Shown here piece after piece: positions 15,650-46,607 of a DNA stretch of 64,000 bases. The notes below the pieces were generated by a model. The model had not been told where the DNA came from. It ran no database searches and saw only the letters and a program-made list of their open reading frames with translations. Every line of letters starts with the position of its first letter. Positions within the stretch are counted from its first letter, which is position 1. A program made the position numbers and the translations under genes. This stretch comes from an uncultured Chloroflexia bacterium (GTDB lineage Bacteria; Chloroflexota; Limnocylindria; Limnocylindrales; CSP1-4), in NCBI GenBank assembly GCA_963764975.1, contig CAVXUF010000002.1:467809-531808 (forward strand), given 5' to 3'.

Positions 15650-15716
15650 GTCGCGCGGTCGCGCGTGCGGCGCCACGGGTCGCGCGTGCGGCGCCACGGG
15701 TCGCGCGTGCGGCGCC
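15650..15716. repeat. tandem direct repeat, 21-bp unit gtcgcgcgtgcggcgccacgg, about 3 copies
   Basis: Copies at 15658-15678 and 15679-15699, plus partial copies on both sides. It is intergenic, between two plus-strand genes. Confidence 0.7.
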
Positions 15717-15800
15717 GTTCACGCTATCGGCCTACAGTGGACATGGCACGACACGTCCGGACGCGACGGCCGTGGCCAATGATCGTTCGGAGGACCACCG

Positions 15801-22392: not shown

Positions 22393-23589
22393 CTAGGCGC
22401 CGTTGTCGAACGTCTCCGACAGCGCCTCGACGAATTCCTCCGGCTTGACCACCCGCACGTAGTTGCCAAGACGGGCGGCATCCTCACGCAGACGCGAGAA
22501 CGAGATATACCGGCAACTTCGCGCGAGAGGCTTGCGCAGTGCCTTGGCGAACGTGGGTCGGTTGATTTCCTCGCGCACCTTCGCGCGCCTCTCGTCCGGC
22601 GCGACGATATACAGCGGGATGTTGAGGTTCGGCGACAGGGCGAGCAGGTCGGCCATGCGCAGCAAGCCCGAGTAGACGGCCGTCGTCGCCTCCACCTCAA
22701 ACGCCGCGATGATGGCTTCGTCCCGGAGCCACAGCACGTCGATCCGCTCGATGCGCCTCACCATCTCAGGAGCGAATTGCACCGGCAGGTCGTCGACCAC
22801 GCCCAGCGTGTCACCGAGGCGCTGGCCTCTATAGACGCGCCCTCGGTCGCCACGATCGACCCAAAGCTGGAGGCCCATCGCGCTGCCCAATTCGAGGAGG
22901 AGCCCCTCGATTTCCGTATGCGCTTTGACCTCGACGACGCTGCGCCCCTCCTCGTCACCCACAATCGGGGCGACCGCCGCCGGAAGCTCCGGCTCGGTTG
23001 CTCCGGCATCGTCGCTGGGCGCATCGGTCGGTTCCAGCGCCAGGGGCTCCTCGCGCGCGGCCCGAGGCGGCTCCTCCTTCCCCAGCCGCGTGCTCCGGGT
23101 CAGGTGGGCCTTGTTGTACGGACGCTCGACAGGGTTGGCCGCCGCATCGCGAATGGCCTCGATGATCATCTCCGCGTCAACGGGCGCAATGTGCTGGGGG
23201 GACCCAAAGAAGTGCCCCTCCCAGCCCCGCGGAGGATTCTTCAACTTCTCGTACCAGCTGAAGCGCGTCACGAGCGACTCGACGGGGATTGCGGTCTCCG
23301 GCTTCAACTGCACTACGACACGGGACCGAACACGAGCGGGAAAGGCCTCCGCCGACCAGACCACCGTCTTGTCGTCTTGGTACGGGGCTGACGTGACCTC
23401 CAAGATCCCGATGAAGCGGGAGATCCCGGTCAGGTAGCAGAGCATGTAGTCGCCGGGCTTCATCTGCTTGACGTAGCCCCACCGGCTGAGGCGAAACCCG
23501 GAGATGCTCGCCCCGGCGGCCAAGAACTCCTGCCACGTCTTCCACGTGAACAGGTCCAGCCAATACGACCGTTCGTTCCCTTCGGTCAT
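22393..23589 (-). CDS. EVE (PUA-like) domain protein fused to a C-terminal restriction-endonuclease-like domain; candidate modification-dependent nuclease
   Basis: N-terminus SYWLDLFTWKTWQEF...MKPGDYMLCYLTG...IGILEV matches the EVE-domain pattern. The C-terminal half has HTEIEGLLLELG...IDVLWL...AFEVE, a candidate PD-(D/E)xK-like core. Confidence 0.5.
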   Translation of the reverse strand: MTEGNERSYWLDLFTWKTWQEFLAAGASISGFRLSRWGYVKQMKPGDYMLCYLTGISRFIGILEVTSAPYQDDKTVVWSAEAFPARVRSRVVVQLKPETAIPVESLVTRFSWYEKLKNPPRGWEGHFFGSPQHIAPVDAEMIIEAIRDAAANPVERPYNKAHLTRSTRLGKEEPPRAAREEPLALEPTDAPSDDAGATEPELPAAVAPIVGDEEGRSVVEVKAHTEIEGLLLELGSAMGLQLWVDRGDRGRVYRGQRLGDTLGVVDDLPVQFAPEMVRRIERIDVLWLRDEAIIAAFEVEATTAVYSGLLRMADLLALSPNLNIPLYIVAPDERRAKVREEINRPTFAKALRKPLARSCRYISFSRLREDAARLGNYVRVVKPEEFVEALSETFDNGA

Positions 23590-24063: not shown

Positions 24064-24642
24064 GTGACCGACTTGGCTTGTCAACTGTTGGCCCAAGCCT
24101 GGTTGCATACCTGTTTTGAACCTCGTGATCGTACCCATAGCTGGACCGCCGGAGGTGAAGCCGGGGAATGTATTGGTCTTTGGGGTCTTTTTACCGCCGG
24201 AGTATCGTCCACCGATGGCCGCCGACACATGGGTCGCCCCTTGACTTCTCCGGCCAGCAAACGCTGTTCGTGCGGCGGCGGCTGCCGGCGCGCGCTCACA
24301 GCCGATCTCGTTTCGCTACTCGATGGCGCCGCCGACGGCTACGAGGCCACCACCGGGACCCGCCCTCGTGGTTTCTGCTGTCCACTCTGCCTTCGTCTGC
24401 TTGATCGCGGCTGCGCCTCGCGTGCACACTACCCGGCCGAGCAGGTGGGCGGTCGTCGCTGGACCCTGCTATGCACGGCCTGCAACAGCTTCCTGGGCAC
24501 CGCTTACGAGTCCGACGCGCACCGTCATTGGACCGCAGCCGAACCCGAGGTGCGTGTCGCCTCATCGACCGTGCGAGGTGCGTGTCGCCTCATCGACCGT
24601 GCAATCTCTGCGCGTCGATGCGAAATGAAAGCGATTGGATGA
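24064..24642 (+). CDS. HNH endonuclease domain protein
   Basis: CCPLC...AHYPAEQVGGRRWTLLCTACNSFLG matches the HNH layout (CxxC, H-x-x-P, GG, LLC-x2-CN). The C-terminal tail is encoded by a duplicated 28-bp unit. Confidence 0.5.
   Translation: MTDLACQLLAQAWLHTCFEPRDRTHSWTAGGEAGECIGLWGLFTAGVSSTDGRRHMGRPLTSPASKRCSCGGGCRRALTADLVSLLDGAADGYEATTGTRPRGFCCPLCLRLLDRGCASRAHYPAEQVGGRRWTLLCTACNSFLGTAYESDAHRHWTAAEPEVRVASSTVRGACRLIDRAISARRCEMKAIG
24557..24612. repeat. perfect tandem duplication, 2 x 28 bp (gaggtgcgtgtcgcctcatcgaccgtgc)
   Basis: Positions 24557-24584 and 24585-24612 are identical. The duplication lies in the last codons of the HNH ORF, about 25 bp upstream of the next ORF. Confidence 0.9.
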
Positions 24643-27661: not shown

Positions 27662-29119
27662 CTAGGCGACGAGGTTGCCACGACGAGGCTTGTCGGGCCT
27701 CGGATAGCCGAGCCGAACGAGTTCGTCCTTCCACAGTCGATTGAGGATGGCCTGTCGAAGGCTGACGTTCCGCGGCAACAACTTGCTGACCTGATGTCGG
27801 CTCGGATATCTGCCCTCAGCGTGGATTGACCGAATCGCCGCCAGGATTAGGTCCTGCCGATGCCGTTGAGCTTCCATGGATTGGTCCTCGACTAATTGAA
27901 GATGGCGCTCTCGAATGAGCCGGCATTCGTCGGGATACAGCCGACTGAGCTGACGGGCGTCGACACGAAGGTCCCTTCGCACCGACCGAAGCGACGGTGG
28001 GACCTCCTGGCCGACGGCCGCGCGAAGCTTCCTTCTTACTCGGTTCCAGTCGAGGACGCGGTGTGTCTCCGTCGACTTCGGGATGTATGGGACCAGGGTC
28101 GGGCCCATGGTCAATTCAAGAAGCGTTACGCGACCAGCGAGGAAGTCGGGAAGGCGAAAGCCTGACGCGGCACAGATCCTGAGTGCGCCACCGATCGTCG
28201 GCCTGCGACGTCCGTCCTTCCACAGGCTGACGGTCCCCGCGCTCATCTGGATCATGTCCGCAAAGCGGATGTACTTGCCACCGGTACTGCGCTCGACCGC
28301 AAGTTGAACAGCGGCCGACGTTGCCACCGGGCTAACCACTTCGCCCGCGGCGGGAGGGTTCGCGATGAGATCGCAGAGGGCCGCCGTGACGTACTCCTGC
28401 CAGTTCAAGACGCGCTCATCGAGGTCCCCTTCGACGGCCTTCACGGCCTCCCATGCGACGCCGAGGAAGCGTCCGCATTCGCAGTAACCGGGCCGTGCCC
28501 ACGCTGCTAACGTCCCCCGCTTGGCTCGACAGCTCGGATCTGAGCAGGCCGACCTGAGCTTGACCCCGTGTCGGATGCATACCTCGAGTTCGGTGAACTG
28601 CCAGAGCAGCGGCTCATAGATGCCGGCAGGCGGTTGTGCGGCGGCGCCAATGGCGGGGCTGGGGACTGGATGGCTCCATTCGAAGTAGCAGCAAGGGCAG
28701 TAGGCGCGGTGGATGCGAAAGGCTCGCTTGGTCGGGAGGACGGGCGCCCAACCAAGGAGCGTCGTCGACCGGATGTCCTCTCGTCCCGTGAGCCGGCCCA
28801 AAGCCTCCGCGATGATCTCGCCGGTGTTCCATGGCCCGATCAGCGTTGAGCGGGGTTTGCGCAGGAGGTCTCGAGTGACGGCCTCGTAGTCAGCCCGAGT
28901 ACGACCTGGCCGCGTCGCGTCACTTCCGGCGTCGGCGATCCAATGCAGGAGCTCGACTGGCGGGATGCGGTGGTCCCAAGCGAGTCCGATGACGTAGCCA
29001 GCGAGGCTGACGACCATGCCGGTTCCCGTGTACTCGGGCGCTCGTCCTTGGAGGACGCTGCGTTCCGGCCACTTCTCAGCGCTGAAGTCCCAGCCCGCGG
29101 GATTCTGTTTGTCAGACAT
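27662..29119 (-). CDS. TniQ/TnsD family target-selection protein
   Basis: HRAYCPCCYFEW ... CIRHGVKLRSACSDPSCR ... YCECG is the TniQ zinc-binding-like pattern. The start is at ATG 29119, overlapping the upstream stop in ATGTCTGA. Confidence 0.55.
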   Translation of the reverse strand: MSDKQNPAGWDFSAEKWPERSVLQGRAPEYTGTGMVVSLAGYVIGLAWDHRIPPVELLHWIADAGSDATRPGRTRADYEAVTRDLLRKPRSTLIGPWNTGEIIAEALGRLTGREDIRSTTLLGWAPVLPTKRAFRIHRAYCPCCYFEWSHPVPSPAIGAAAQPPAGIYEPLLWQFTELEVCIRHGVKLRSACSDPSCRAKRGTLAAWARPGYCECGRFLGVAWEAVKAVEGDLDERVLNWQEYVTAALCDLIANPPAAGEVVSPVATSAAVQLAVERSTGGKYIRFADMIQMSAGTVSLWKDGRRRPTIGGALRICAASGFRLPDFLAGRVTLLELTMGPTLVPYIPKSTETHRVLDWNRVRRKLRAAVGQEVPPSLRSVRRDLRVDARQLSRLYPDECRLIRERHLQLVEDQSMEAQRHRQDLILAAIRSIHAEGRYPSRHQVSKLLPRNVSLRQAILNRLWKDELVRLGYPRPDKPRRGNLVA

Positions 29120-30263
29120 CGTCTGGCTCCGCTTCGCCAACGGGGTCATCCTCGAGGCCACGTTCACCCGGTCTCAGGGTGCGAGGGTCGTCGTAGTTGA
29201 CCGTGGGACGTGGAGGTGCAATGTCTTCCTGGACCGTCGATGGCGCGGTGCCCTCGAGGATCGCGATCACGTCGTCGATGGTCACACTCGCCTCCTCGGC
29301 AATGCGCTTCTCGAAGGCAACGAACCGATGCGCCAGCGACCGGAGTTGATGCGGCTGGAGAGGCACCCGCTCCCCCAACACGTCCTCAGCCGTGTACTTG
29401 GCTGGACGCTCGGCAAGAAGCCTGTTCGCACTGGCGATCCAACGATGCAACCTGGCCACCGAACCGACGCTGTAGGCCATCAGGAAGCTGAGCACGTCAT
29501 CACTTGCTGCAGGGGCCTTGGCGCCCATTACGGCAAGTTCGAGCGCAGCGATACGAGCGAACTCGAGTCGGTCTTTGTGCCCGCGGGTCGATTGATAGCG
29601 CGGAAGGTAGACCTCTGCAACGGCTGTTGACGTCGTGCGGTATTCGAGGACCTCGAAACCTCCGCTGAGGACCAGAATGACCCCGGCAGCCGCGGCGAAC
29701 TGGGCGAGCATCTCGGCCCCATCACCCGGCACGGCGACCGGGATTCGTCGTCCTCGCCGCTCGAAGCGGGTCACGACGACCACCTTGACCTTCCGATGCT
29801 CGCATTCGCTCGCGGCCGCGATCAGCTGGTCGGCGCATTCCTTCAGCTGTGCCCGTCGCCCCAGCACCCAACCTGCCGAAACGGATCGAAGCTCGCTGGA
29901 CGGGACCTGTACATCGGACCGGGCCGCTCCGAGCTTGCCCTGGATCTCCGCGAAAAGCGTGCGGAGGTCGAGCACGCCCTTACGATCGAAGGTCGCCAAG
30001 ACTGGGACCACTGGCGAAAACGATGGGTCGCGAAGCATCTCGAGACGGTGTCCGTAGGCAAACATGTTCGCGCCAATCAGCGTCGCGGCGTCGCAGTCTT
30101 CCCCGGTCGGTCCGTACACGAGAATCAGGGAACCTGCCTGCTCGGTTGAGAGGAGGGATCCGAGACGGTCCACGGCGACCTTTTGGAGCCGGTGCGCCGC
30201 GGGAGTCGCTTCCGCGTTGTCTGAGTCCGGCGCAGGCAGACCACGGGCGATCGCAAGGGTCAC
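29112..30263 (-). CDS. TnsC/TniB-position AAA+-like protein with degenerate Walker A (LILVYGPTGEDCDAATL, no Lys-Ser/Thr)
   Basis: It sits between the transposase and tniQ with GTGA/ATGA overlaps, and is about 383 aa. Its P-loop-like segment lacks the conserved GK[ST]. Confidence 0.4.
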   Translation of the reverse strand: MTLAIARGLPAPDSDNAEATPAAHRLQKVAVDRLGSLLSTEQAGSLILVYGPTGEDCDAATLIGANMFAYGHRLEMLRDPSFSPVVPVLATFDRKGVLDLRTLFAEIQGKLGAARSDVQVPSSELRSVSAGWVLGRRAQLKECADQLIAAASECEHRKVKVVVVTRFERRGRRIPVAVPGDGAEMLAQFAAAAGVILVLSGGFEVLEYRTTSTAVAEVYLPRYQSTRGHKDRLEFARIAALELAVMGAKAPAASDDVLSFLMAYSVGSVARLHRWIASANRLLAERPAKYTAEDVLGERVPLQPHQLRSLAHRFVAFEKRIAEEASVTIDDVIAILEGTAPSTVQEDIAPPRPTVNYDDPRTLRPGERGLEDDPVGEAEPDDV

Positions 30264-33148
30264 GGTGCGCCATCCTTGCCCGTGAATGGGATGACGTTGC
30301 CTCCGGATCCGACCTCCTCGAAGTCGTCAGCGCGATGACGGATCTTCGAACCAAAGATGAGTGCTGATCGAGCGTCGGAGGAAACCCGTGCGGCGGCCAG
30401 CTTGGGTGCTCGAGAAGACCTCGCCACGGCTGTGTGCTCGTCCTCAGGCACGACTGGGGCAGCCCACAGGGGTTCACGCGCCGCGCCGAGAACATCGCCA
30501 CGAGGCAGGTCGAGGCGCTTCGCGGCCGTTCGGCCACTCGCCTTCCTCGCCGCCGCCTGTTCGGCGATCAGGTCTCCTTCCCGCTCCAGCATTTCGACGA
30601 GCAGGTCCCCGAGCTTGCCGTCCTCGACCTGCTTGCGCCGGTAGTGGCCCTCGTTGAAGGCCAGGACTACCTTGGTGAAGAAGGAGAGTTCCAGGTAGGT
30701 CAGGTGGAAGCGAGCGATGGGCGAGCGTAGGACGCATCGAACCCAGCGAGCGGCGACAAATTCTCCATCGTCCGTGTGACGTGGGACGAACACCCACACG
30801 GCACCGATGTCGCCACGAATGATCCTCACCGTCACCTGAACGCCTTCGAGCCGAGGGTGCGTGAGGGCCTCATCCCAGTAGTAGAGACGGTTCACCCAGA
30901 TCCCATTGCTGTTGGAGACCTTCGGACGCCATGCATGTCGAACGGCCATCTCACGCTCGATGTGCGCACTCCAGCGGACGAGGCGCGACTGGCGCATACC
31001 GTGTTCGAAACGCGCATCCCAAGCTTCGTCTGTCGTCTGGCGGAGTGCCTGGATGACTCGCTCGTGCTCGACAAGCGCGTCCCGTTTGTCAACGAGCGCG
31101 ATGGCCTCCGCAAGGGGCCAGATCGCGTGGTTCCGGGGATCAAGCTCACGGTCCATGGCGCGCGCATTCTTGGAAATCTGGGTATTGGCCATCATCGCGT
31201 TGAACAAGTCGGTATTGATCGCCCCGAACCTCCGTTCGACCGGTAGACCGCCCCGGCCACTCGATTTCAGGCGGTACTTCACCTCAGAGCCGTGAAGCGC
31301 TAGGAACTTTTGGACTCGAGTGGTCTTGTGGACAAGCGCGTTGTCGAGAACGTAGACCTCGGACAGGAAGCCGAACTTTCGGATCTGGTCAGCGAGGGCC
31401 TCGAGGACGACACCCTCGTCGACCTCGCCGAAGTGCCAAGCCTGCCCGAGCTTCTTCCCCGAGAAGCCATCGACAAGTCGGAAGAGGCTCGGGCGCAGCG
31501 CGCCGTCCCGGGTGAAGCGCTCGCATACCCAGATGTCGGTGACGGTCGCGTCCCCATGAGCGATCTGGCCAGGGTATTGGCCGTTCGGCGACTCTGAGTC
31601 CGGATCGAACATGACCCACGGCTTCTTGGAGGCAGCACCCTTGTGCCCGACGCTCTTGAGCAGCGACTCGTAGATCGGACGTCCTCGGAGCCAGGTCAGG
31701 ATGGCCGGATAGCTCGGTGCTTTGATGCCTTGCTTGTTGGCGCGGGATAACACGTCGCGATAGAACGCTTTGGCCGACGGTTTTCGCCCAGGCGTGTCGA
31801 AGAACGCCGCTGCGCGGACGACCAGGAAGTCGTTCACCGGTTCGGCGAGGTGGCTGCCAGGTCTACCTGCATTCGGACGTTCGAGCAGGCCCGCGAACCC
31901 GCAGCCGATCTCAGCCCATTCCCAGTAACGCGTCTGCCATTCCCGGACAGTGGCCAGGGCTGGGTTCTTGCCCGCCACGACGGGAAACGCAATGCGCTCG
32001 CGCGCCCAATACTCCTGTAGAGCGACAAGTCGCTCCTCGGCAAGTTCGACCGCGTCAGGTCCTGCTCCATCGAACCGCGCCTCGATCAGGGCGAGGTTCG
32101 CTCGATCCTCATCGTCCGCGGGGCCGAGTCCACTCATCGCTCCAGATCTGATTGCTTGGTCGACGTCTGAGCGAGAGACCACTTTCGTCCTGCGTCCATC
32201 GGGACCGTCGATTTGCTTGAACGAGATGCTGCCCGCCGACGTTCGGACAATCTCGTACCGAGCATCGAGCCAGAGGACCATCTCGCCGGCCTTGAGATTG
32301 ACCGGTCCCGGCCGTCCTCCACCGACCGCGACCACCACTGGTGACGGCATCTGCGCGGCGACGACAGGCGAGAGGTAGGCGAAGGCCGCGTCCTCATACT
32401 CGAGTTCGTACGCCAACAGGTCGACATAGATCAGGCCGCTCAGGATGGCGATGCAGATGTCGTCCTTAGAGAACCCGCGACGACGCAGTTCGCCGACCGG
32501 GATACCTGGATGGTCTGCGACGCACGACCAAATCGCGGATGCGATCCCCTCCGGAACAGCGCATCCGATGAAGCTCGCAAGGTATTTGGCGTTGCTGATC
32601 TCCTTCTTGCTGAGCGACTCGATGACGATGACCGTGTAGGTGAGACCCCATTCGGCGGCGTAGTCGTCGCCGCTTGGACAGCGCCAGAGTCCGTCGACCT
32701 TGACGTAGAACCCTGGGTGCGCGTCGATCTGGTCGTCTACCGCCTTCTGCGTCTTGATGTCGACCCAGCCGGGAGCCTTGTCGCCCCAGAAGACGAAAGC
32801 GTCCATGGTTCCCCACTGCGATGGGAACCTGACCTTTCCGTCGTCGCCGAGCGTGGCAAAGACCCGCTTCACCTGCTCCTTGGGCTGCGCCGCGTACCAG
32901 AGGACTCGCGTCCAATACTCGAACAGCTTGTAAACGTTGTACTCACTGAACAATTCAGCTTCCCTCGTGCGACCCGCCTTCTTGCTCGCGATCCTCGCGC
33001 TGCCGTGGTAGCGATCGGGGCGGGTCTTTCGTGACGCACCGATTGCCGCCCAGACCCGCCGACAGATGGCTTCCCCGCCGGCCGATAGAGCTGGCGACAG
33101 TCCAGACCGGTAGGTTTCGAAATCCTCTGCCTCGAATCTGCGTTTCAT
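30260..33148 (-). CDS. fused TnsA-TnsB transposase (TnsA endonuclease-like N-domain + DDE/rve transposase)
   Basis: The N-terminal region aligns to the Tn7 TnsA catalytic core: SKKAGRTREAELFSEY.. (E), TMDAFVFWGD (D), VDIKTQ (K). The DDE domain has DATVTD ... VLDNA ... VERRF. The start is ATG 33148 (MKRRFEAEDFETY). Confidence 0.7.
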   Translation of the reverse strand: MKRRFEAEDFETYRSGLSPALSAGGEAICRRVWAAIGASRKTRPDRYHGSARIASKKAGRTREAELFSEYNVYKLFEYWTRVLWYAAQPKEQVKRVFATLGDDGKVRFPSQWGTMDAFVFWGDKAPGWVDIKTQKAVDDQIDAHPGFYVKVDGLWRCPSGDDYAAEWGLTYTVIVIESLSKKEISNAKYLASFIGCAVPEGIASAIWSCVADHPGIPVGELRRRGFSKDDICIAILSGLIYVDLLAYELEYEDAAFAYLSPVVAAQMPSPVVVAVGGGRPGPVNLKAGEMVLWLDARYEIVRTSAGSISFKQIDGPDGRRTKVVSRSDVDQAIRSGAMSGLGPADDEDRANLALIEARFDGAGPDAVELAEERLVALQEYWARERIAFPVVAGKNPALATVREWQTRYWEWAEIGCGFAGLLERPNAGRPGSHLAEPVNDFLVVRAAAFFDTPGRKPSAKAFYRDVLSRANKQGIKAPSYPAILTWLRGRPIYESLLKSVGHKGAASKKPWVMFDPDSESPNGQYPGQIAHGDATVTDIWVCERFTRDGALRPSLFRLVDGFSGKKLGQAWHFGEVDEGVVLEALADQIRKFGFLSEVYVLDNALVHKTTRVQKFLALHGSEVKYRLKSSGRGGLPVERRFGAINTDLFNAMMANTQISKNARAMDRELDPRNHAIWPLAEAIALVDKRDALVEHERVIQALRQTTDEAWDARFEHGMRQSRLVRWSAHIEREMAVRHAWRPKVSNSNGIWVNRLYYWDEALTHPRLEGVQVTVRIIRGDIGAVWVFVPRHTDDGEFVAARWVRCVLRSPIARFHLTYLELSFFTKVVLAFNEGHYRRKQVEDGKLGDLLVEMLEREGDLIAEQAAARKASGRTAAKRLDLPRGDVLGAAREPLWAAPVVPEDEHTAVARSSRAPKLAAARVSSDARSALIFGSKIRHRADDFEEVGSGGNVIPFTGKDGAP

Positions 33149-33660
33149 GTCGATGACCTGGCGGCGATGGGCACGGCTACGCAGATTGCACACAGTCCGC
33201 CTTCACGCGTGGCCTGACGGCGCAGACGCTCCGCTCGACGCAGTAGCGCCAAGTCCGGGTCACCCGAGTCGTGCCAGATCGCGCGATCGAGCAGCGCCAT
33301 CGGGACGACTCGCCCGACGCCGGCCAATGCCCGATGCGCTGCCCCGAAGTCACAGGCGTGTCGGATCGTCGTTCGGTCTGCCTGGCTCAGGGCGACATCA
33401 GAGCCAGCCCGCTCGTGTGACTGCAGGAACTCCGCATATCGGGTCTCGAGCGATCGCGCCGACACGCCGAGCGTGAGGCGAACTCGGTCGAGCACATGCC
33501 ATGGCATGTCAGCGTGCTTCGTATGCATTTCGAGAAGCACCTGGAAGGCTTCGTGCCATTGGGCGCCGGTGGGTCGCTGGCGGGCGGGACCGCGAGAAGG
33601 CGTGGCGACCGGAGTCGGCGAGTTCGCGTGATGGTGTGCATCGGAAGGCATGCCCACCAC
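33145..33660 (-). CDS. hypothetical protein translationally coupled upstream of tnsAB
   Basis: Its TGA stop overlaps the tnsAB ATG (ATGA). 171 aa as listed; the true start is uncertain (internal Met at MHTKHAD or MPWHVL). Confidence 0.35.
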   Translation of the reverse strand: MVGMPSDAHHHANSPTPVATPSRGPARQRPTGAQWHEAFQVLLEMHTKHADMPWHVLDRVRLTLGVSARSLETRYAEFLQSHERAGSDVALSQADRTTIRHACDFGAAHRALAGVGRVVPMALLDRAIWHDSGDPDLALLRRAERLRRQATREGGLCAICVAVPIAARSST

Positions 33661-33840: not shown

Positions 33841-34383
33841 ATGGAAACCCTTGAAATGAGCGTGCCGGAAGCGGCACGACGCCTCGGTCGTAATGAGAGC
33901 ACCGTCCGTCGAATGATCGACGACGGCCGCCTGCCTGGTACACCCAAAAGGAAGCCGGGCGCCCATGCCAAGGTCTTGCGTGCGGCTGTCGAGGCGATGG
34001 CTGCCACCTCTCGCCAGTACTCCTCGATCTCGGCACGACTAGCGAACCTTCCCACGAGGGTTTGGAGCGGCCGCATGGGGCCGGCTCTGTTCATCCTCGA
34101 CCACGAAGCTATCCGCCGCGAGGTCTACCGGCACGTTTACCTTGGGCCAGATCGAATCGACTTCGACGTCATCTACTCGGAGTTCCTGGCCGACGAGGAC
34201 GTTGCGCTGGTGGAGGCGGCGCACGTCTTGTACGACGCTGCTGTCGACGTCAGCTTTACGCGACTCGTAGAGACGCTTCGGGGCGAGCGTCTCCTGCGTG
34301 TGGGTCTCGCCATTGAACTGCGCGAGGGTTCGATCGACCGATGGGAGGCTTTTCGCATCATCGGCCGGCACAGTCGCAGGTGA
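33841..34383 (+). CDS. helix-turn-helix (excisionase/AlpA/MerR-like) DNA-binding protein
   Basis: METLEMSVPEAARRLGRNESTVRRMIDDGRLPG is an HTH_17-like motif. Third-codon positions are GC-rich in this frame. It overlaps the antisense ORF 34039..34860. Confidence 0.45.
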   Translation: METLEMSVPEAARRLGRNESTVRRMIDDGRLPGTPKRKPGAHAKVLRAAVEAMAATSRQYSSISARLANLPTRVWSGRMGPALFILDHEAIRREVYRHVYLGPDRIDFDVIYSEFLADEDVALVEAAHVLYDAAVDVSFTRLVETLRGERLLRVGLAIELREGSIDRWEAFRIIGRHSRR

Positions 34384-34860
34384 GGTGAAAAGGCTCGGAC
34401 CCAGAATCCGGAGTTCCTGTGGACTTCCGGATGGCGCGGCTGCGGTCTCCGCGACGATGGTCGCGACCAACTGGCGTCGGACGCTTCGGAGGGCGACGAC
34501 AGGGTTACGGCTCCCCCGCCCAAGACGGAGCCGGGACCGCTTCGGCAGACCAATCAGGTCCGCGTAGAAGCGTTCGTTCTCGGGAACCAACGCGACTCGC
34601 AGGCCGGTGGCTCGACCGAGGATCGTCATGTCGGCAGCGAGCTGCGCGTCCGCCCAAGCCAGGTCGATGAGGTTGTCGGCGATCGACGTCGGCGGGAGCA
34701 GCGGTGTCACATGGTCGATACCACGGGGATCCTCGAGCATCGTCCGCAACAAGATGACGCGCCCTGAGCCGCGGCCTGTCTCTGGACAAGGGCGTTCCCA
34801 TTGCTCTCGCAGCTCTTCGGCCGTCGTGCCTTCGGGATGGACGCGCGTTCGGAGGCTCAT
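34039..34860 (-). CDS. hypothetical protein downstream of, and 4-nt overlapped with, the FtsH-like AAA+ protease gene
   Basis: 273-aa ORF. The N-terminal about 150 aa look protein-like. The 3-prime part overlaps the plus-strand HTH gene, so its extent is uncertain. Confidence 0.35.
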   Translation of the reverse strand: MSLRTRVHPEGTTAEELREQWERPCPETGRGSGRVILLRTMLEDPRGIDHVTPLLPPTSIADNLIDLAWADAQLAADMTILGRATGLRVALVPENERFYADLIGLPKRSRLRLGRGSRNPVVALRSVRRQLVATIVAETAAAPSGSPQELRILGPSLFTSPATVPADDAKSLPSVDRTLAQFNGETHTQETLAPKRLYESRKADVDSSVVQDVRRLHQRNVLVGQELRVDDVEVDSIWPKVNVPVDLAADSFVVEDEQSRPHAAAPNPRGKVR

Positions 34861-36236
34861 GCCGCCTCCGGCGTCATGAAGGCCGCCGCCTCGATCGCGG
34901 CCATCAGCTCGTCGCCCGTGAGTTCGGTCGCAGCATCGAGGGCTTTGGCGAATGTGGTGATCGGGCCGAAATTTGCCGCGACGATCCGCTCGGCCGCGGC
35001 GCGTGCCGAGACGAGCGTGGCCGCGACCACGGAGCCCAGACTGTCCTTCAGGTTTTCGGGCACATTGAGGCCGAACTCGGCGAGGGCCACCGGTGGGTGA
35101 CCAGCCTCCCAGCCCTGCTCCACGCGCTGGACCGCTCGATTCGTGGCCATCTCCAGATCCGCACCCGCCAATGAGGGCTCGCCGAGGATGGCGGCCTCTG
35201 AACAGGTTCCGCAGAACACGCTGATCAGGAAGTCGCGGTGCTCGTCATCAGGCAGGTCGTTGGGACTGATGCCTTCAAGGCCGAAATTCGTTTTCCCGCC
35301 GCCGTCGTTGTCGATCGAGACGGCGTGAACCCACGACGCGCCGTCGCCGCCACGGCCGGCGGCACGAGCCAGGATGACCAGGCCGGCGACATGACCGGCC
35401 TCATGGACGGCTGTCCGCCAGCGCGATGGGGAGTTCGTCTGCTCGGGCAGGATGTTGCCGGCGCGGCGCAGCGCCTCGACCAGGTCGGCGTCGACAAGGA
35501 CCGAACGTCCGGCGACCAGGGCCAGTCCGGCGGCGTCCTCGACGAACGCCTGGATGTCGGCCGGTGATCGGTCGCGACTGAGTCGGGCGGCCCGTCGGAG
35601 GTCGAGGGTGCCATCGGTCGGCCGAGACCGCGAGTACAGGGCGAACAGCTCGGCGCGCTCGTCCTCGTTGGGCAGGTCGAAGAAGATGTGCGTCCCCAGC
35701 CGACCGCTGCGGATGAGGGCGGGGTCCAGCTCCGCGGGGTGGCGATTCGTCGCCACGACGACGATCGGACCCTCGGAGGGGACCAACCCGGACAAGGTCG
35801 ACAGGGCCGAGGTCAGCAAAAGTCTGGTCGCCGGAGTATGGGTCCCGAATGCGCGCTGAACCGCCCAGGAGTCTGCCTCGTCGATGAAGACAACACTTTT
35901 CTGAGGAGCAGAAGCGAGCGAGCGGATGGCTCCCCGTAATCGGTCCGGGCTCAACTCGTCCGATGGGATCTCGTAGAGGTCCACCCCATCGCCCAATTGC
36001 GAGGCGAGGTAACGGGCGAGATGGGTCTTGCCTGTGCCGGGCGATCCGTAGAAGAGGATGCCCCGTGGTGGGACGGCGCCGAGGAGTGCGACTCGTTCGG
36101 GATCGCGGAGGCGAGCAAGGAGGGAGTCGACTTCGGCCATCGCGTGACCGATACCGACGACCTGCGATCGGTCGAACCGGGCCATCTCGACTCGGTGGGC
36201 ATCGAGCCAGGCTTGGGTGAATCGCGCCTTGAGCAT
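34857..36236 (-). CDS. soluble FtsH-like AAA+ ATPase fused to M41-type zinc peptidase (no TM domain)
   Basis: Walker A GSPGTGKT, Walker B VVFIDEAD and SRH SGRLG. The peptidase part has TAVHEAGHVAGL (HEXXH) and LAGADLEMATN, like the FtsH protease domain. No N-terminal TM helices. Confidence 0.7.
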   Translation of the reverse strand: MLKARFTQAWLDAHRVEMARFDRSQVVGIGHAMAEVDSLLARLRDPERVALLGAVPPRGILFYGSPGTGKTHLARYLASQLGDGVDLYEIPSDELSPDRLRGAIRSLASAPQKSVVFIDEADSWAVQRAFGTHTPATRLLLTSALSTLSGLVPSEGPIVVVATNRHPAELDPALIRSGRLGTHIFFDLPNEDERAELFALYSRSRPTDGTLDLRRAARLSRDRSPADIQAFVEDAAGLALVAGRSVLVDADLVEALRRAGNILPEQTNSPSRWRTAVHEAGHVAGLVILARAAGRGGDGASWVHAVSIDNDGGGKTNFGLEGISPNDLPDDEHRDFLISVFCGTCSEAAILGEPSLAGADLEMATNRAVQRVEQGWEAGHPPVALAEFGLNVPENLKDSLGSVVAATLVSARAAAERIVAANFGPITTFAKALDAATELTGDELMAAIEAAAFMTPEAA

Positions 36237-36401
36237 CTGTTGGACTCCGGGTGACGGGGTGTGTCATCCGAGGAGACCAGCTATGGGGCGCTAGGGGAAG
36301 CACGTCGGGAGGCTCTAGAGGCCGGGGTGCGGTCATTGCGATCTTTGGGACCGCGAATGGGCCCTTCCTTGACAGCGCCAGTGTCCCAACCATCGTCTGA
36401 C

Positions 36402-36608
36402 ATGAAGAGCCAGCGGTTCATGGGCACGGAAGAGGTGGGGCGCCGACTCGGTATGAGTTCCGAGTGGGTGCGGCGGCAGTGCATTGCCATGAAGATGCCG
36501 GCGATCGTCTACCGCACAGGTTCGCGATCGGTGTACCGGATCACCGAGGAAGGGCTCGCTGAGTTCCAGCGGCGATATGCGGGCACCGCTGACGATGTTC
36601 AGGACTAA
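36402..36608 (+). CDS. excisionase/AlpA-like HTH protein
   Basis: 68 aa from ATG 36402: MKSQRFMGTEEVGRRLGMSSEWVRRQ...IVYRTGSRSVYRITEEGL. Confidence 0.5.
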   Translation: MKSQRFMGTEEVGRRLGMSSEWVRRQCIAMKMPAIVYRTGSRSVYRITEEGLAEFQRRYAGTADDVQD

Positions 36609-36898: not shown

Positions 36899-39112
36899 CT
36901 AGAGGTTGTCGGCACCCATGTCAGCCCAACCAGGGGGCCACAGCTCCATGTGATCCTCACCCTGCGGCGCTTGCGCGGCACTCTCGGGCCGACGAGGTGA
37001 GGAAGCCGTGGCCGCCTCCGAGAGCAACTCGTCGAAGCGAGCAGCGAGCTCCAGATCGGGACTCGCTGGAATCTCCCGGATCCCGTCGATCTGATCGAGT
37101 CGGTACTCGCTGATCCGTCCGACCAGGACCAGGTCTCCACGAGACCTGGTCAGACCGACGTAGACCAAGCCGGCCGTCTGCGCCGGCGCCGACCTGAACG
37201 GGAGGATCAGGATCACCCGTCCAGCCTCCCAACCCTTGAAGGAATGGACGGTGGAGACCTTGAGGCGGGCGTCCCCGAATGCGAATGTCTTCTTGTTCGC
37301 CTGCGCGATCCGCCATGGCGCGTCCTGTTCCCGACCCGTCGACCGTTCCATCATCGCCCCAGTGCGGGTGACGGGAAAGACGTGGTTCGTGCTCACACCC
37401 TGCTCGGCGAGGAGCCGGACAAGCGCCTGGCCCAGCGGCTTATCTGGGACCACGATCGCGACGTCGCGCGCTCGATAGTCTGGTTCGGCCTGCCACGATC
37501 GAAGCACGCCAATCACCTCCGCAGCGGCATCGGCCGGCCTGTGCGCCCTGATCGTCGAGACGGTGGCATCTGGAGGCAGGAGTCCATCCTCAGCCGCTTG
37601 AAGCGGAGGCGTCTTCAGAGACCACTCAGCGGCGAAAGTGGTGGCAAGAAGGACACTTGATGCCGGCAGCCTGATGGCCTTGCCGAGCCGATGGACGCGG
37701 CCCGTCGTTCCTCCAAACAGCCGGGCAATATCGCCGCGCGTCATGGCCGACTCACGCTCATACAGGCGCTGGGCCGCGTCGTATGCCAGGACGACCTCAG
37801 AAGCCCCAAGACGCTGGACTAGCTCGAACCAGGCGGGACTGAAATCCTGCGCCTCATCGATGAACACGGCGTCAAACTGGAGCGTATCGGGTACTCCACG
37901 CTGTTCGAGAAGGCGGATCGCAGACGCCGGCCAGTCAGCTTCGAGCGCCTGTTGATCGGCCGCCTCGTCGTCCCACGGTCCCGCCTCGACGGGGCGCGTG
38001 GCTCCGATCGGTGGAAGTGGCTCGCGGTAGTAGTCGTGGACGCGGCGGCACAGTTCGTGGAGGTGCAGGACGGTTACACGGTCTGGCCGGTACGCGACAG
38101 GGACGAGCCGGAGCATCCCTCGCACGTAGTTGGTCAACGTCCTGTTGAAGGTCAGAATCAGGGACCTCCTCCCACGCTGGGCCGACACGCCGGCCCGCTG
38201 TGCGAGGACAAGGGTTTTACCGCTGCCTGCCACGCCTTCGAGGCCCGTGTAGCCGTCACGAGGAACGGCGAAGTCCCGCTGCTCCTTGTTGAGGGTGATG
38301 GTCGCAAGCGCATCGGGCATTCGGCGTTCGTGGGTCAGCGCTTGGTCGAGGGCCTCGAACCACTGGTCCTCAAGAACCGCGGCTCGACCCAGGATCGGCA
38401 CCACGCGCAGTGGGTCGCTCACGACGAGGCCGTCGTGTCCGAATGCATCGACGTGGCGCGCGTCTGGATCCTGGGATGCCAGGCGTCGGGCATCGGCCGT
38501 CGATGACTGGGAAAAGAACAGACCCGCCCTCAGGACCCCGAATCGCCGCGAGTCGTCGTTGATCGCCTCGCCGATCTCCGGAGCGTAGACGCCATACACG
38601 CGCGAGCGGACGGCATTGAGGAACCTGAACGGCGAAGCGAAGCGCCCTTCGATCGGGCCCTCGCCAACCCAGACCCCTCGTTCGACCCGGAAATACTTCA
38701 GGTCCCAGTCGACGACATCCCAGAACATGCCGCCCGCGGTGCGGTGCAGCGCGGCGATCAGCGGGCGGTCCGCATCCAGGTGTGGGCGGACGTAGATGTT
38801 CCAATCGTGGGGAAGGACGTCATCAAGAAACCGGGCCAGACGACGTTCGCCGTCCGTCAACGGAGGGATGAACCTGTCGGGATCATTGATCTCCGCCCAT
38901 GCCGGACTGATCCGACCTTCATCCGCGGCGGTCAGGCGACGGAGCCCTGGATGGTGCTCCAGAAAATCACGGGTCTCGCCGTCGTCGAAGCGAGCCGAGA
39001 TGATCCCGGACCGGACAGCCAGAACCGTCGCATTGCCCAATTGCGGATGCCGGACACGCTCGCCGGGGCCGAGCGGGGTCCGTTCGTCAGGTCCTTCGCC
39101 CGCGAGCGTCAT
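36899..39112 (-). CDS. NERD domain + UvrD-like superfamily I helicase
   Basis: The N-terminal NERD-like region has HDWNIYVRPHLD. The helicase has motif I GVAGSGKT, motif II FIDEAQDF, and the C-terminal VHSFKGWEAGRVILILP. Confidence 0.7.
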   Translation of the reverse strand: MTLAGEGPDERTPLGPGERVRHPQLGNATVLAVRSGIISARFDDGETRDFLEHHPGLRRLTAADEGRISPAWAEINDPDRFIPPLTDGERRLARFLDDVLPHDWNIYVRPHLDADRPLIAALHRTAGGMFWDVVDWDLKYFRVERGVWVGEGPIEGRFASPFRFLNAVRSRVYGVYAPEIGEAINDDSRRFGVLRAGLFFSQSSTADARRLASQDPDARHVDAFGHDGLVVSDPLRVVPILGRAAVLEDQWFEALDQALTHERRMPDALATITLNKEQRDFAVPRDGYTGLEGVAGSGKTLVLAQRAGVSAQRGRRSLILTFNRTLTNYVRGMLRLVPVAYRPDRVTVLHLHELCRRVHDYYREPLPPIGATRPVEAGPWDDEAADQQALEADWPASAIRLLEQRGVPDTLQFDAVFIDEAQDFSPAWFELVQRLGASEVVLAYDAAQRLYERESAMTRGDIARLFGGTTGRVHRLGKAIRLPASSVLLATTFAAEWSLKTPPLQAAEDGLLPPDATVSTIRAHRPADAAAEVIGVLRSWQAEPDYRARDVAIVVPDKPLGQALVRLLAEQGVSTNHVFPVTRTGAMMERSTGREQDAPWRIAQANKKTFAFGDARLKVSTVHSFKGWEAGRVILILPFRSAPAQTAGLVYVGLTRSRGDLVLVGRISEYRLDQIDGIREIPASPDLELAARFDELLSEAATASSPRRPESAAQAPQGEDHMELWPPGWADMGADNL

Positions 39113-39710: not shown

Positions 39711-42700
39711 ATGCTGGCGGTCCCTTCGCATGAGGGGCCTCGATTTGGTCGCATTGGAGCGAACATGCGCGAGGGAACGAACGTGCGAGCGGCCTCCGGC
39801 TGGCCAGATCCGGGGCGAGAGGCCCTGACAATCCTCCGGGACCAGCTGGCGCCATTCGCGGAGGAGCATCTCTCGAGAGCCTACCCAGACTCGTATCGTC
39901 GAATCCTCGGGCTGGAGCGGCGTCCGGGAGCAACCATTGGGCAGGGTGGCCGCAAGGCCGTCGACGACCCCGACGAGCTCCTTGGCATCTTGTTGAACCA
40001 GCAGTACTGGTCCCGAGCTTTTGAGCCTGCGTTCGGTGGCGATACGAATGCCGCCTACCGGGTCAAGAACCTGTGCCGCGACATCCGCGAACTCCGAGCC
40101 GCGTTCGCGATGCACCAGCGCGATTTCACCCCCGCCGATGCGTGGCGGCTCGTGGATTCGACGATGAGGCTTCTCACCCTGCTTGACCTCCTCGATCAGA
40201 AGACCAAGGACTCGTTGGAGGAGATCCGACGAGAACTTCTGACGGCCAGCGAGAGCCCGGACACGGTTCGGCTGCGCCAGAAGCACCTTGCGCACGTCGC
40301 ATCGCGATTTGAATACGTCGATGTGGGGGCTATTGCGCCTTCGGTAGGTGGCGCTGTTGTACGTCTCAGGCTGGATGAAATCTACCGCTCCCCGCGGTTC
40401 GAGGCCATCAGCGTATCGATGGCACCCGTAGAGAGCGATGACACGGTTGTGGCACAGCCAGCTGGCACCCGGCCCCCGGAGACCGTTGGGCCAGCGGAAA
40501 TCCTCGGCGAGCGGCGCTTGTTGATCGTCGCCGGACCCGGCGCCGGCAAGAGCACGTTCATGCGATCCGTCGCTCGGGACCTCGCCCTTGGCCGAGACGT
40601 GCCGGGGATCGCCGCTGCACTCACGCCGATCCTGGTGGCCGCCAGTGCACTTGGAGAGGCGTTGGCCAATGGATCCGCGTCGTCGCTCGAGGACTACATC
40701 GAGACCCAACTCGCAGGCGATGCGGGACCTGCCCTGGGATCCGACATCCGCGCTGGTCGAGCGATGGTTCTGGTGGACGGTGTCGACGAGGTCGGTGCCC
40801 AGGGGGCTCAAATCAGAGTGGCCCAAGCTCTCGAACACTTCGGGGCGGCGCACCCCAGCGTCCGCATGGTTGTGTCCGCACGACCCATGGGCTACCGCGA
40901 AGTACGCCTTGGCGCAGACTTCACCGCATATCGGCTTTCGCCGCTCGGCTCGGGCGAGATCGAGGCGTTCATCGGCGGCTGGTTCGGGGCCGCCTTCCCG
41001 CAAGACGAGGCGGAGGCCAATCGGCGACGCAGCCTCGGCGTGAACGCGCTGATTTCCTCCTCAGCCGAGTTGCGCGACCTCGCGGGCACCCCCCTGTTGC
41101 TCACCGTGATCTGCCTGCTCGCGATGCGGGGAGGCACACTTCCTGAGCGCCGGGTGGAGCTCTTCAGGGTGGCAACGAACACCCTCCTGCATCAATGGCC
41201 AAGGACCCACGGATTCAATCTCGACGATTACGAGTTGCGGCTGCTCATGGGCAGGGTCGCCGCGAGAATTCTCGAGCGCCGTGAGCGCCTACTCCGGGCA
41301 TCGGAGCTCGAGGGGTTGCTCGAGAACGCGCTTGAGGACTTGCGCGGACTCGCCCGGCCCCAGGCCAGACAAGCGGCAGCAAGCATGTTGCGAATGATCG
41401 AGCAGCAGACCGGCTTCCTTGTCGAGCAAGGCGTCGACGCGGGTGAGCCGGTCTACGGATTCATCCATCGGAACTTCGCCGAATACCTGGCGGCGATTGA
41501 CCTGTTCGAGCGGCACGCCGCAGGCACGATCACCCTCAGCGACATCGTCTTCGATCCCCGCTATGGGGAGGCGATCCCCCTCTTCTTCCTACACGTGAGC
41601 GAGACCGGACTGGAGCTGTCATCCAGGCTCGTCGATGAAGTGCTGTCGCTTGACTCCCCGTTTCGAATCTATGCGTGCTTGGGCGAGCGTCTTGTCGTAG
41701 ACCTGTTGACCCAGGGCGTGCGCGTCAAGCCGATGGTGCGTGAGCGTGCTGTTCTGCTGGCAATTGAGGCGGCGATCTCTGTGAAGTCGTCGTATGTCGC
41801 GGACATGCTGATGACGGGACTCCACCGGCTGGCCACCGAAGACCGGCTCGGCCCCCAAGGCGACCTCCTGATGGAACGTATCGACGCGGCCCCATTCTCG
41901 CGAGGGAGACGGGCGCGGGTCGTATGGAAACTGCGGCCCGAGCCGTACACGGGCCCCGACGTGAGGTGGCTTCTCGACGAGGCGCGCGCCATCGCGGATG
42001 TCGAACCTGGCGAGGCGAACATGCTCCTGAAGCTCGCCTCAGCGGCCACCGGGTCGGAGGCTGCGGAGGTCGACGCTGCCCTGGATCGCCCCGCGGGAAC
42101 GCGGGCGGTGCTTCTCGCTTTTGCAACCGGCCCCGCCGCCACCGACCGGATTCCCATTACCGAGTCCCAGGCAGTTGGACTCGCCGACGCGGGGTTACTG
42201 CGATTATCGGCCGGGGACCTCGTCGCTCATCACGGCGTCCCACCTGGTTTTGATGCGGGGCCGTTCCTTCTGGACGTCGCGGATGTCGACCTCATTGACG
42301 TCGAAGGACTCTTGACACTCAACCAAGAGGGGCTCCCAATGTGGGTAGTCCTCCTGATCTCCGGACTGCGGTCATGGAGTCCGGCCGAGTCAGATGAAGC
42401 CGCAGCACGCTTCGTTCAGCTTCCTGAGCCGGCCGAAGACGCAACCGGATTCGCGCCCACCGTGCTGCTCGCGATCGTGGCCGCCGGGCGCATCGCCCAA
42501 CTGAGCGAGGCGGCGGAGATGCCGGACTGGCTACGGCGGGCGATCGATGCGGAGAATGCGGACGACGGCCTCGACATCGCGCTGGCTTTCCACTTTGTCG
42601 CCACGGCCGTGTCCACGGTCACGTCATGGGGCACTCCCCTGTTGGTGGGACTCCTAACGCATCGCGAGGGCTCCATCCGGAGGGGCGTGTGCCGGCGCAT

Positions 42701-44908: not shown

Positions 44909-44980
44909 TACATCCTCCCTCGGGCGCCTGCCACGTGCGCCGGAACGGCCAACGCGGAAGGATCTACCACGACCCAATCG

Positions 44981-45898: not shown

Positions 45899-45902
45899 CC
45901 GA

Positions 45903-46607
45903 TTACCAGACGAAGTCGACGTCTGTGGAGTCATCCGGGGCGACGGGTATTGGGACGTTGCCGCCAACTTGCGCGTCGTCTACGGCGCGGCTGGCAGGCG
46001 AGGATGCCGCCTTGAGCACGGCCGTCGAAGCCCACTTGATGTAAGTCACGAGGGCGGGCGCGTTCTTCGCCAGAAGGGGCTTCAGTTCCCCCGTGCCGAT
46101 GAACTTCGACAAGACGTCCAGATCAGCATCGCCCCCAACGGCGATCCCGATTCGAACGGCTCGCTTGCCCCAAGGCTCAGACATGAGCCGCTGGAGTCCC
46201 CCGCCGAAGTCGTCGGTCGGCTGCCCGTCGCTGATCAGCACGAGGACCGGCGGGAGAGATCTGTCGGGCATCGGTGGGGTCTGGAGTTGCTCAGCAACGA
46301 GTTCCATGGCGTGACCCATGTCCGTGACTCCCCCCGCAGTCACGTTGGTCCACTTGAAGTCCTCGATCGAAATGGGCGTTGCGACATGCCACCTCGCGCC
46401 ATCCGAGAAGGTCACGACCCGCACCAGGACCTCCGCATTGGGGTTCTCCCGGGCTGTGTCCAGCATCGCCGGGATCGCCTCGTGGATCGCGAAGTTGAGC
46501 ATGCCGATCTTCTCGCCATCCATGGAACCTGATGTGTCGAGAATCCAGATGAAGTGCAAGGGCCGAGTTGCAATCGGCCCTCCGGGCAAAGCGCTCATGA
46601 CGCGCAT
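45903..46607 (-). CDS. von Willebrand factor A (vWA) domain protein
   Basis: MIDAS motif FIWILDTSGSMDG...T...D. Confidence 0.75.
   Translation of the reverse strand: MRVMSALPGGPIATRPLHFIWILDTSGSMDGEKIGMLNFAIHEAIPAMLDTARENPNAEVLVRVVTFSDGARWHVATPISIEDFKWTNVTAGGVTDMGHAMELVAEQLQTPPMPDRSLPPVLVLISDGQPTDDFGGGLQRLMSEPWGKRAVRIGIAVGGDADLDVLSKFIGTGELKPLLAKNAPALVTYIKWASTAVLKAASSPASRAVDDAQVGGNVPIPVAPDDSTDVDFVW

Follow-up and report, generated by a model that had tools for sequence, protein, structure and literature searches.

A Clade of Tn7-Like Modules Encodes a TnsC Homolog without Walker A, Walker B, and Arginine-Finger Residues

Introduction

What becomes of a Tn7-like module whose TnsC protein has lost the residues expected to bind ATP? 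This question is raised by a locus in a 64,000-nucleotide stretch of DNA from an uncultured Chloroflexia bacterium (assembly GCA_963764975.1, contig CAVXUF010000002.1, positions 467,809 to 531,808), hereafter the window, in which a gene at 29112..30263 lies between tnsAB, encoding a TnsA–TnsB fusion transposase, and tniQ, encoding a TnsD-like protein. TnsC is viewed as the linchpin, dependent on ATP, of every Tn7-family and CRISPR-associated transposon (CAST), and its ATP-driven assembly is considered indispensable for targeted transposition of this type. A sequence-only reading of the window had already remarked that the protein in this TnsC/TniB position possesses neither the Walker A lysine nor a clear Walker B motif, and had proposed either an inactivated regulator, implying a non-autonomous or immobilized element, or a divergent non-ATPase adaptor between the transposase and TniQ. 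Here, we report that the protein is TnsC by profile and by fold and that both motif losses are real, and we add to that reading the minus-strand orientation of the gene, the deletion of the arginine fingers, and the finding that the loss defines an entire clade.

The Protein between TnsAB and TniQ Is a TnsC Homolog

The gene is an open reading frame (ORF) on the minus strand that encodes 383 amino acids from a GTG start at position 30263, which overlaps the stop of the upstream transposase gene by 4 nucleotides; translation of 29112-30263 on the plus strand produced many stops. No match to the protein was obtained in Pfam or NCBIfam, an absence that fits its degenerate motifs, and these standard family models miss the protein. 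Its identity was instead recovered with profiles. Searching the PDB (hmmsearch) with a profile built from the protein and its close homologs returned as best match the TnsC of the type I-B CAST from the Peltigera membranacea cyanobiont (PmcTnsC; 8fcu_Q, 9g0f_A) with an E-value of 6e-9, and the alignment of the same profile with that of 24 canonical relatives (hhalign) extended over 356 columns with a probability of 100% and an E-value of 1.5e-39.

The structural prediction pointed in the same direction. The AlphaFold2 model, computed from a 12-sequence alignment (predicted local distance difference test, pLDDT, 71; predicted template modeling score, pTM, 0.62), comprises a strand-loop-helix at residues 46-71, core strands at 85-89, 161-165, 196-201, and 215-219 in the β1-loop-α1 ... 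β3 ... β4 order, and a helical lid. When this model was compared with the PDB by Foldseek, the top 13 matches were all TnsC proteins (PmcTnsC, Escherichia coli Tn7 TnsC, VchTnsC, and ShTnsC), followed by ORC/Cdc6 and RuvBL, and the best of them reached an E-value of 6.4e-10 with template modeling scores of 0.55/0.67. The sequence-only reading had raised the prospect of an AAA+ fold retained around a remodeled nucleotide pocket, and this is what the alignment to TnsC relatives and the predicted structure indicate. By descent, fold, and context, the product is a true TnsC homolog with an AAA+ fold. We nevertheless refer to it as a TnsC-derived pseudo-ATPase rather than as an ordinary TnsC, because the three catalytic features that define the latter, namely Walker A, Walker B, and the arginine fingers, all fail.

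Three Motif Sets of the Nucleotide Site Are Lost

In PmcTnsC, the motifs in question are Walker A 57-GASGVGKT-64, Walker B 167-VFFVDE-172, and the arginine fingers R223/R224 (PMC11915506). The only P-loop-like segment of the window protein is LILVYGPTGEDCDAATL, residues 46-62, which lacks the Walker A lysine; within it, the Walker A remnant GPTGEDCDA (residues 51-59; 30087..30113, minus strand) occupies the canonical GPTGVGKT(T) position. The Walker B strand remnant VVVVTRFERRG (residues 161-171; 29751..29783, minus strand) stands in place of the canonical hhhhDEAQH, so that VVVVTR aligns with hhhhDE. Scanning the whole 383-residue protein revealed neither GK[ST] nor hhhhDE, and the idea that another part of the chain carries the canonical Walker A was discarded, the profile alignment setting the P-loop exactly on LILVYGPTGEDCDAATL. 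The third set is not substituted but removed, since a 4-residue deletion sited at 29613..29621 (minus strand) takes out the two trans-acting arginine fingers of the canonical QLSRRS, the counterparts of PmcTnsC R223/R224. In the profile-to-profile alignment, GPtGVGKTTL is paired with GPsg-DcDAvA, IDEAqH with VVthleR, and QLsRRs with the 4-residue gap; each loss is placed at the homologous position, and the absence of the motifs is not an alignment artifact.

Column statistics showed that these changes are orderly. At Walker A, the canonical G (99%), K (98%), and [TS] are replaced within the clade by D (92%), C (75%, the rest being A), and D (100%). At Walker B, the canonical D-E-A-Q-H (D 98%, E 90%) becomes T-H-L-E-R followed by a conserved R-G, with the first position varying among T/R/K, the second among H/R/G, and the H replaced by R; the window protein itself reads T-R-F-E-R. 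The sensor-1 position changes from G-T in the canonical relatives to G-G in the clade, and the two arginine-finger columns, occupied by R in 91% and 98% of the canonical relatives, are deleted in 12/12 clade members. The residues that took over the pocket are themselves conserved (D56 in 92%, D58 in 100%, and R169 in 92% of the clade). Taken by charge, the pocket is reversed, as the P-loop has gained two acidic residues and the Walker B region has lost two acidic residues and gained basic ones.

Outside the pocket, the family signature is maintained. H24, P84, R157, G201, R222-Y223, F235, G267, W275, and E318 are present in 100% of the clade, and the C-terminal tail motif RPGERGLEDDPVG (29136..29174, minus strand), shared with the canonical relatives in the form kPGeRxPxRDxVG, is retained across the clade as RPGERxLEDDPVG. 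Within this tail, P365, G366, R368, D373, and G376 show no variation among clade members, and their conservation in the canonical relatives is 62–92%.

The motif loss is specific to the clade: K, DE, and RR are absent in 12/12 members, and among 130 full-length relatives outside it, 127/130 keep GK[ST] and D[ED] is retained in 126/130. The possibility that the rebuilt pocket forms a Cys/His/Asp metal site was considered and rejected, as C57 and H166 do not co-vary (C57 with R166 in the window protein, A57 with H166 in P0011-13). As a separate observation, one of the three outside relatives without GK[ST], the distant P0081, carries GPVASGRT and LINQAD at Walker A and Walker B and, judged from its sequence, may represent a second instance in which the ATPase motifs degenerated independently.

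The Clade Is Rare and under Purifying Selection

The database search grouped the homologs of the window protein into 12 clusters at 90% identity, with identities of 41–76%, lengths of approximately 380–390 amino acids, and ORFs that are all intact and full-length. A profile search of 1.84 billion representatives recovered seven close members and, after a wide score gap, hundreds of proteins of 365–410 amino acids; it yielded 479 relatives at E ≤ 1e-3, and nearly all of the full-length distant ones carry a textbook GP[ST]G[VA]GK[ST]. Among the nearest canonical relatives of the clade, matches to the TniB/AAA_22 Pfam families are faint or weak. No further member was found when the clade TnsC alignment was searched against the contigs of 185,579 species-representative genomes or against JGI metagenome contigs. 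With the TnsAB alignment as query, three short metagenome contigs were obtained, the family being nearly absent from the JGI metagenome collection; the TniQ alignment retrieved only two cousins from Chloroflexi metagenome-assembled genomes, whose TnsC is of the canonical type by similarity to that of locus L010.

Pairwise identities within the clade are comparable for the three proteins (48–67% for TnsC, 54–72% for TnsAB, and 56–66% for TniQ). The ratios of nonsynonymous to synonymous substitution rates (dN/dS; Nei–Gojobori, NG86), computed at the same loci, were likewise indistinguishable among the three genes, with 0.24–0.39 for tnsC, 0.23–0.37 for tnsAB, and 0.23–0.35 for tniQ, values that are only approximate because dS is near saturation. 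At this approximate level, purifying selection on the clade tnsC is as strong as on its neighbors tnsAB and tniQ. A neutral, inactivated gene is unlikely, because an intact frame and conserved replacement residues persist across the divergence of the clade.

Two loci show a different organization. In L006 and L008, only the last 112 codons of tnsAB accompany intact tnsC and tniQ genes that are 99% identical to those of L005, and this remnant is joined to a UvrD-helicase/DUF4236/HD-domain gene set; the similarity to L005 stops exactly at the tniQ stop codon.

Partner Genes Are Intact and the Module Layout Is Kept

The transposase gene tnsAB occupies 30260..33148 on the minus strand and encodes 962 amino acids from an ATG, within a 977-codon ORF that reaches 33193; it was identified by gene call and by phmmer similarity to the TnsAB of the Peltigera cyanobiont CAST (PmcCAST; 9bw1_M, E-value 6.5e-43 over residues 36-804). 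When five clade homologs (54–72% identical) were aligned, the PD-(D/E)xK nuclease residues E84, D131, D145, and K147 and the DDE residues D548, D617, and E653 were all invariant, and the C-terminal segment that matches the TnsC-binding hook was conserved at F947, G948, R952, R954, D957, and F958. The selector gene tniQ lies at 27662..29119 on the minus strand, where the gene call gives a TnsD-like protein of approximately 485 amino acids in a 501-codon ORF that reaches 29167; it matches PF06527 with an E-value of 7.7e-9 and 36.8 bits against a cutoff of 27, shows 56–63% identity to its counterparts in the clade, and its start is overlapped by tnsC. Between lineages, TniQ is better conserved (34–40%) than TnsAB or TnsC (25–27%), and the TnsAB proteins of cousin lineages with a canonical or canonical-like TnsC are 25–31% identical to that of the window.

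Directly upstream of tnsAB, and translationally coupled to it, lies a small conserved ORF of 168 amino acids (33145..33651, minus strand), for which no match was detected in Pfam, NCBIfam, or PADLOC. Homologs of 130–170 amino acids, with identities of 39–58% and approximately 30%, are found in this same place at every related locus, those with canonical TnsC included, and the ORF may be an unrecognized component of this transposon group. The order small ORF-tnsAB-tnsC-tniQ, with overlapping stops and starts, is kept in the window and in the metagenomic loci L002-L005 and L007. Beyond the small ORF, a divergent gene at 33856..34383 (plus strand) encodes a 175-residue DNA-binding protein of the HTH_17/excisionase type, identified by gene call, Pfam HTH_17 (4.8e-9), and an NCBIfam excisionase-family domain. 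At the opposite end, the genes located 3′ of tniQ are wholly different from locus to locus.

No second TnsC, TnsAB, or TniQ was found in the 64-kb window, and no second TnsC-like gene in the 10–15 kb available for the other loci. Cas families were absent among the ORFs scanned around the module, a set that did not include every small ORF, and no CRISPR-like spaced repeats were detected at 10–45 kb of the window.

A Nucleotide-Independent Adaptor Is the Preferred Reading

These observations can be accommodated if the clade TnsC acts as a nucleotide-independent adaptor that links TniQ to TnsAB in a still-functional module, a reading to which we assign a probability of about 0.58. Of the two interpretations put forward by the sequence-only reading, the non-ATPase adaptor is therefore the one that is best supported; in it, the failure to bind nucleotide, the adaptor function, and continued transposition by the module are inferred. 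According to this reading, TnsC would have been converted into a pseudo-ATPase by keeping the AAA+ α/β core, the lid, the non-pocket residues, and the C-terminal tail around a rebuilt pocket that would hold no ATP-Mg. The TnsD-like TniQ, positioned at the target, would recruit this protein, which in turn would recruit and activate the TnsA–TnsB fusion through the TnsAB C-terminal hook and its own tail. The placement of an acidic P-loop opposite a basic Walker B region suggests, from the sequence, that internal salt bridges may replace the K-ATP-Mg-D/E network and lock a single conformation. Such a protein would have no ATP-controlled switch for assembly and disassembly, and with the switch lost there would probably be no ATP-dependent proofreading or target immunity either. 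A more specific version, in which the clade represents a naturally ATP-independent TnsC whose ring or adaptor is held, in place of ATP and arginine fingers, by protein contacts alone during TniQ-directed recruitment and activation of TnsAB, is put forward tentatively and at somewhat less than even odds.

Several points weigh against the adaptor reading. In PmcTnsC, each of the substitutions K63A, E172A, and R224A abolishes detectable transposition (PMC11915506), so a working TnsC without all three residues would need compensating changes. Transposon ends, target-site duplications, and signs of recent movement were not found by several strategies in sequence of 62–70% GC (guanine plus cytosine). 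The confidence of the AlphaFold2 model is moderate, the saturation of dS limits the selection estimates as stated above, and the truncated derivatives L006/L008 show that some copies decay.

The Upstream AAA ATPase Is Probably a Landmark

The alternative that survives best keeps the clade TnsC as a nucleotide-free scaffold and assigns the ATP step, whether assembly control or a disassembly of the kind that ClpX performs for Mu, to an AAA ATPase acting in trans or to a canonical TnsC encoded elsewhere. Its obvious candidate is a classic-clade, FtsH/Cdc48-like AAA ATPase of 459 amino acids encoded at 34857..36236 on the minus strand, co-oriented with the module (PF00004, 2e-20; PDB matches to Cdc48/p97 and FtsH), whose Walker A and Walker B are intact (GSPGTGKT and FIDEAD). 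A conserved ORF at 34450..34860 (minus strand) overlaps the AAA stop by 4 nucleotides and corresponds to approximately the first 135 amino acids of the ORF 34039-34860; its counterpart in L021, which likewise overlaps the stop of the AAA gene, is 40% identical to it (E-value 5.5e-16). A gene of approximately 70 codons at 36414..36596 (plus strand), oriented divergently from the AAA gene, encodes an HTH_17 protein with 49% identity to that of L003 (tblastn, E-value 9e-17).

Wherever the sequence of a clade locus extends far enough (the window, L002, L003, L004 with two copies, and L005/L007 with two copies), an intact-Walker AAA gene lies upstream of and co-oriented with the module, the ORF at 34450..34860 is translationally coupled to the AAA gene, and ATP hydrolysis has been proposed as possibly needed for transpososome disassembly (PMC11915506), all of which would suit an ATPase acting in trans. 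The same AAA arrangement, however, is found beside cousins in which the Walker A of TnsC is intact (L010/P0019 and L021) or TnsC most closely resembles the canonical type (L017 and L019), and because it also precedes canonical TnsC genes, the AAA gene is not a correlate of motif loss. The HTH_17-AAA pairing, present in L002-L004 and L018-L020, occurs in L020 without any Tn7 module, and in L018 it adjoins a TniB/TniQ element that gives no tblastn match (E ≤ 1e-4) to the TnsAB, TnsC, or TniQ of the window. The AAA phylogeny is also discordant with that of the transposon, the window AAA protein being 59% identical to that of L018, 45–48% to those of L019, L020, and L021, and only 36–48% to those of its own TnsC clade, and no second TnsC-like gene was found in the 64-kb window or in the 10–15 kb of the other loci. 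A specific replacement of the lost TnsC ATPase by the upstream AAA protein is thereby largely rejected, and the wider idea of an ATP step provided in trans is unlikely.

An alternative role for the AAA operon can be suggested from its distribution. The module at 34857-36608, composed of the HTH_17 gene of approximately 70 codons, the AAA ATPase gene, and the small ORF coupled to the latter, is found upstream of at least four divergent lineages of TniQ-bearing transposons (L002-L005, L007, L010, L017-L019, and L021), and may, on these sequence grounds, be an attachment region for this group of elements. The closer conservation of TniQ between lineages and the changing genes 3′ of tniQ also argue against a surrogate ATPase. 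The arrangement resembles that of glmS and Tn7, with a constant gene beside the end nearest tnsA and cargo that varies past tniQ; from this likeness, the AAA operon is more probably a landmark for insertion, or a region of attachment, than a part of the machinery.

Three further features of this region deserve mention. The ORF 34039-34860 (minus strand) spans 273 codons and overlaps the opposite-strand HTH gene 33856-34383 (plus strand) by approximately 345 nucleotides, and only its first 135 residues or so are conserved with L021. In L005, the stop of the second AAA paralog is immediately followed by a remnant frame (2198-2300) that overlaps the start of the next ORF. This frame encodes ...LEAAGELTGSDLAAAIADAGC..., which copies the C-terminus conserved in the first AAA type, and may be a scar left at the 3′ end of the AAA gene by insertion or by recombination. 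Finally, in L018 (12313-13155) and L021 (2125-2967), a Ku gene (PF02735) has the AAA operon on one side and the tns genes on the other, and is co-directional with a TnsB-like/TniB/TniQ set in the former and with a canonical TnsAB-TnsC-TniQ set in the latter. This placement recalls the Ku-like Gam of phage Mu, an analogy that suggests that a Ku encoded by the element may protect the DNA ends that excision leaves behind.

Transposon Ends and Genomic Surroundings

Repeat scans, custom and short-BLAST searches for inverted repeats, and local repeated k-mers returned no end signal above background, and clustered 12-mer arrays in opposite orientation and k-mers conserved across loci gave nothing convincing as ends. 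Of the candidates that did emerge, two from a search for TGT...ACA with a 5-bp duplication fell inside intact genes, an 11-nucleotide match to the 28-bp tandem repeat at 24546-24601 was at chance level, and the breakpoints of L005 against the near-identical contigs L006, L014, and L015, which coincide with the tniQ stop, interrupt tnsAB, or lie upstream of the HTH gene, look recombinant or chimeric and not like clean ends; all of them were rejected. The 28-bp unit itself is perfectly duplicated in tandem just upstream of a 374-codon ORF at 24635, and a 21-bp unit is present in three tandem copies at 15657-15719; no link of either repeat to the transposon was established.

The surroundings of the module are of lower GC content than the flank (0.62–0.67 at 20–47 kb of the window vs. 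approximately 0.70). Within this region, defense-type genes were found at 36899-39112 (minus strand), 39711-43511 (plus strand), 22393-23589 (minus strand), and 43601-45967 (minus strand); the set comprises a NERD+UvrD-type helicase (PADLOC C3a187, 1e-53), a Swt1-like HEPN-NACHT protein of 1266 residues, a protein that combines an EVE domain with a C-terminus resembling type II restriction enzymes, and a protein kinase paired with a PP2C phosphatase. Across the window, L002, and L003, the defense-type genes by the module include NERD/UvrD helicase, HEPN-NACHT, EVE/restriction-enzyme-like, TIR, and SMODS genes.

Such a neighborhood invites the idea that the tnsAB-tnsC-tniQ set was domesticated and serves, at a fixed locus, a purpose other than transposition, such as cutting or rearranging DNA site-specifically in a defense island, in which case the ATP-gated switch for target commitment would no longer be needed. 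The constant position of the module downstream of the HTH_17-AAA pair, the defense-type genes just described, the lower GC content, and the missing ends would all fit. Nevertheless, the gene content downstream of tniQ changes entirely from one locus to the next, which is what transposon cargo or different flanks would produce, the same layout is shared by cousins with canonical TnsC and hence is by itself no indication, and positive evidence for another activity is lacking. We therefore regard domestication as improbable, slightly more so than an ATP step provided in trans.

The inactivated regulator of the sequence-only reading, that is, a decaying, immobilized, or non-autonomous Tn7-like remnant in which motif loss means inactivation, fares worst and is very improbable, for the missing ends and duplications, the rarity of the family (12 clusters, 0/185,579 species-representative genomes, and three short metagenome contigs), the truncated L006/L008, and the equivalent point mutations that kill PmcCAST (PMC11915506) are outweighed by ORFs that stay full-length down to 41% identity, substitutions fixed in 12/12 members, conserved replacement residues, a dN/dS equal to that of the transposase and TniQ genes, and invariant TnsA and TnsB catalytic residues.

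Significance and Comparison with Known Systems

We return to the nucleotide-independent adaptor, the preferred reading, to consider its implications. Mutagenesis in the closest system (PMC11915506) supports the expectation that TnsC needs ATP, and the clade runs counter to it. In full-text searches of the literature, we found no account of a natural TnsC devoid of its ATPase motifs. One large TnsC survey dropped sequences with alignment gaps in the Walker A/B columns (PMC10293859). The loss of three motif sets in a gene that remains, with its transposase and selector, under purifying selection amounts to a natural experiment on what the nucleotide does in these systems, be it assembly glue, proofreading, immunity, or disassembly. 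Were the module active, it would show how a fixed scaffold can arise from an AAA+ switch, and a simpler, nucleotide-independent adaptor could inform the engineering of programmable integrases; were the stricter, ATP-independent version true, the nucleotide switch would be dispensable for targeted transposition.

Among known systems, Tn7 itself and the type I-F and V-K CASTs (7mbw, 8glu, 7rzy, and 7plh) encode TnsC proteins that share the AAA+ fold with the window protein (Foldseek E-values of 2e-5 to 7e-5) and the same gene position between transposase and target selector. They differ in forming ATP-dependent oligomers, and the Tn7 TnsC is larger (555 amino acids). For Tn7, target immunity rests on ATP hydrolysis, and mutants of Walker B show a gain of function. 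TniB (PF05621), of the Tn5053/Tn402 family, and MuB of phage Mu are likewise AAA+ regulators encoded after a DDE transposase; both are active ATPases, and the window protein falls below all Pfam and NCBIfam thresholds. A parallel for the pseudo-ATPase state itself is provided by the E. coli clamp loader, whose delta and delta-prime subunits kept the AAA+ fold in a structural or adaptor capacity after their ATP-binding residues were lost. These subunits are unrelated to the window protein in sequence and context, and their hetero-oligomer partners bind ATP, whereas no ATP-binding TnsC paralog was found in the 64-kb window.

The closest system is PmcCAST (type I-B2; PDB 8fcu, 8fcv, 9g0f, 9gmz, 8v32, and 9bw1), whose TnsC is the best match of the window protein both in sequence and in fold. 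PmcTnsC assembles as a heptameric ring with ATP and double-stranded DNA, and its arginine fingers couple ATP binding to oligomerization (PMC11915506). The window TnsC lacks all three motif sets of PmcTnsC and is only approximately 16–18% identical to it, and the window module has no Cas genes or CRISPR array beside it within the ORFs and the 10–45 kb scanned. For PmcTnsC, no ATPase activity is detectable in vitro, TnsAB does not disassemble the ring, and ATP acts mainly as an assembly cofactor (PMC11915506), which offers a precedent for the adaptor reading. The two systems share the length class of TnsC (383 amino acids), a natural TnsA–TnsB fusion with a C-terminal hook, and a TnsD/TniQ selector.

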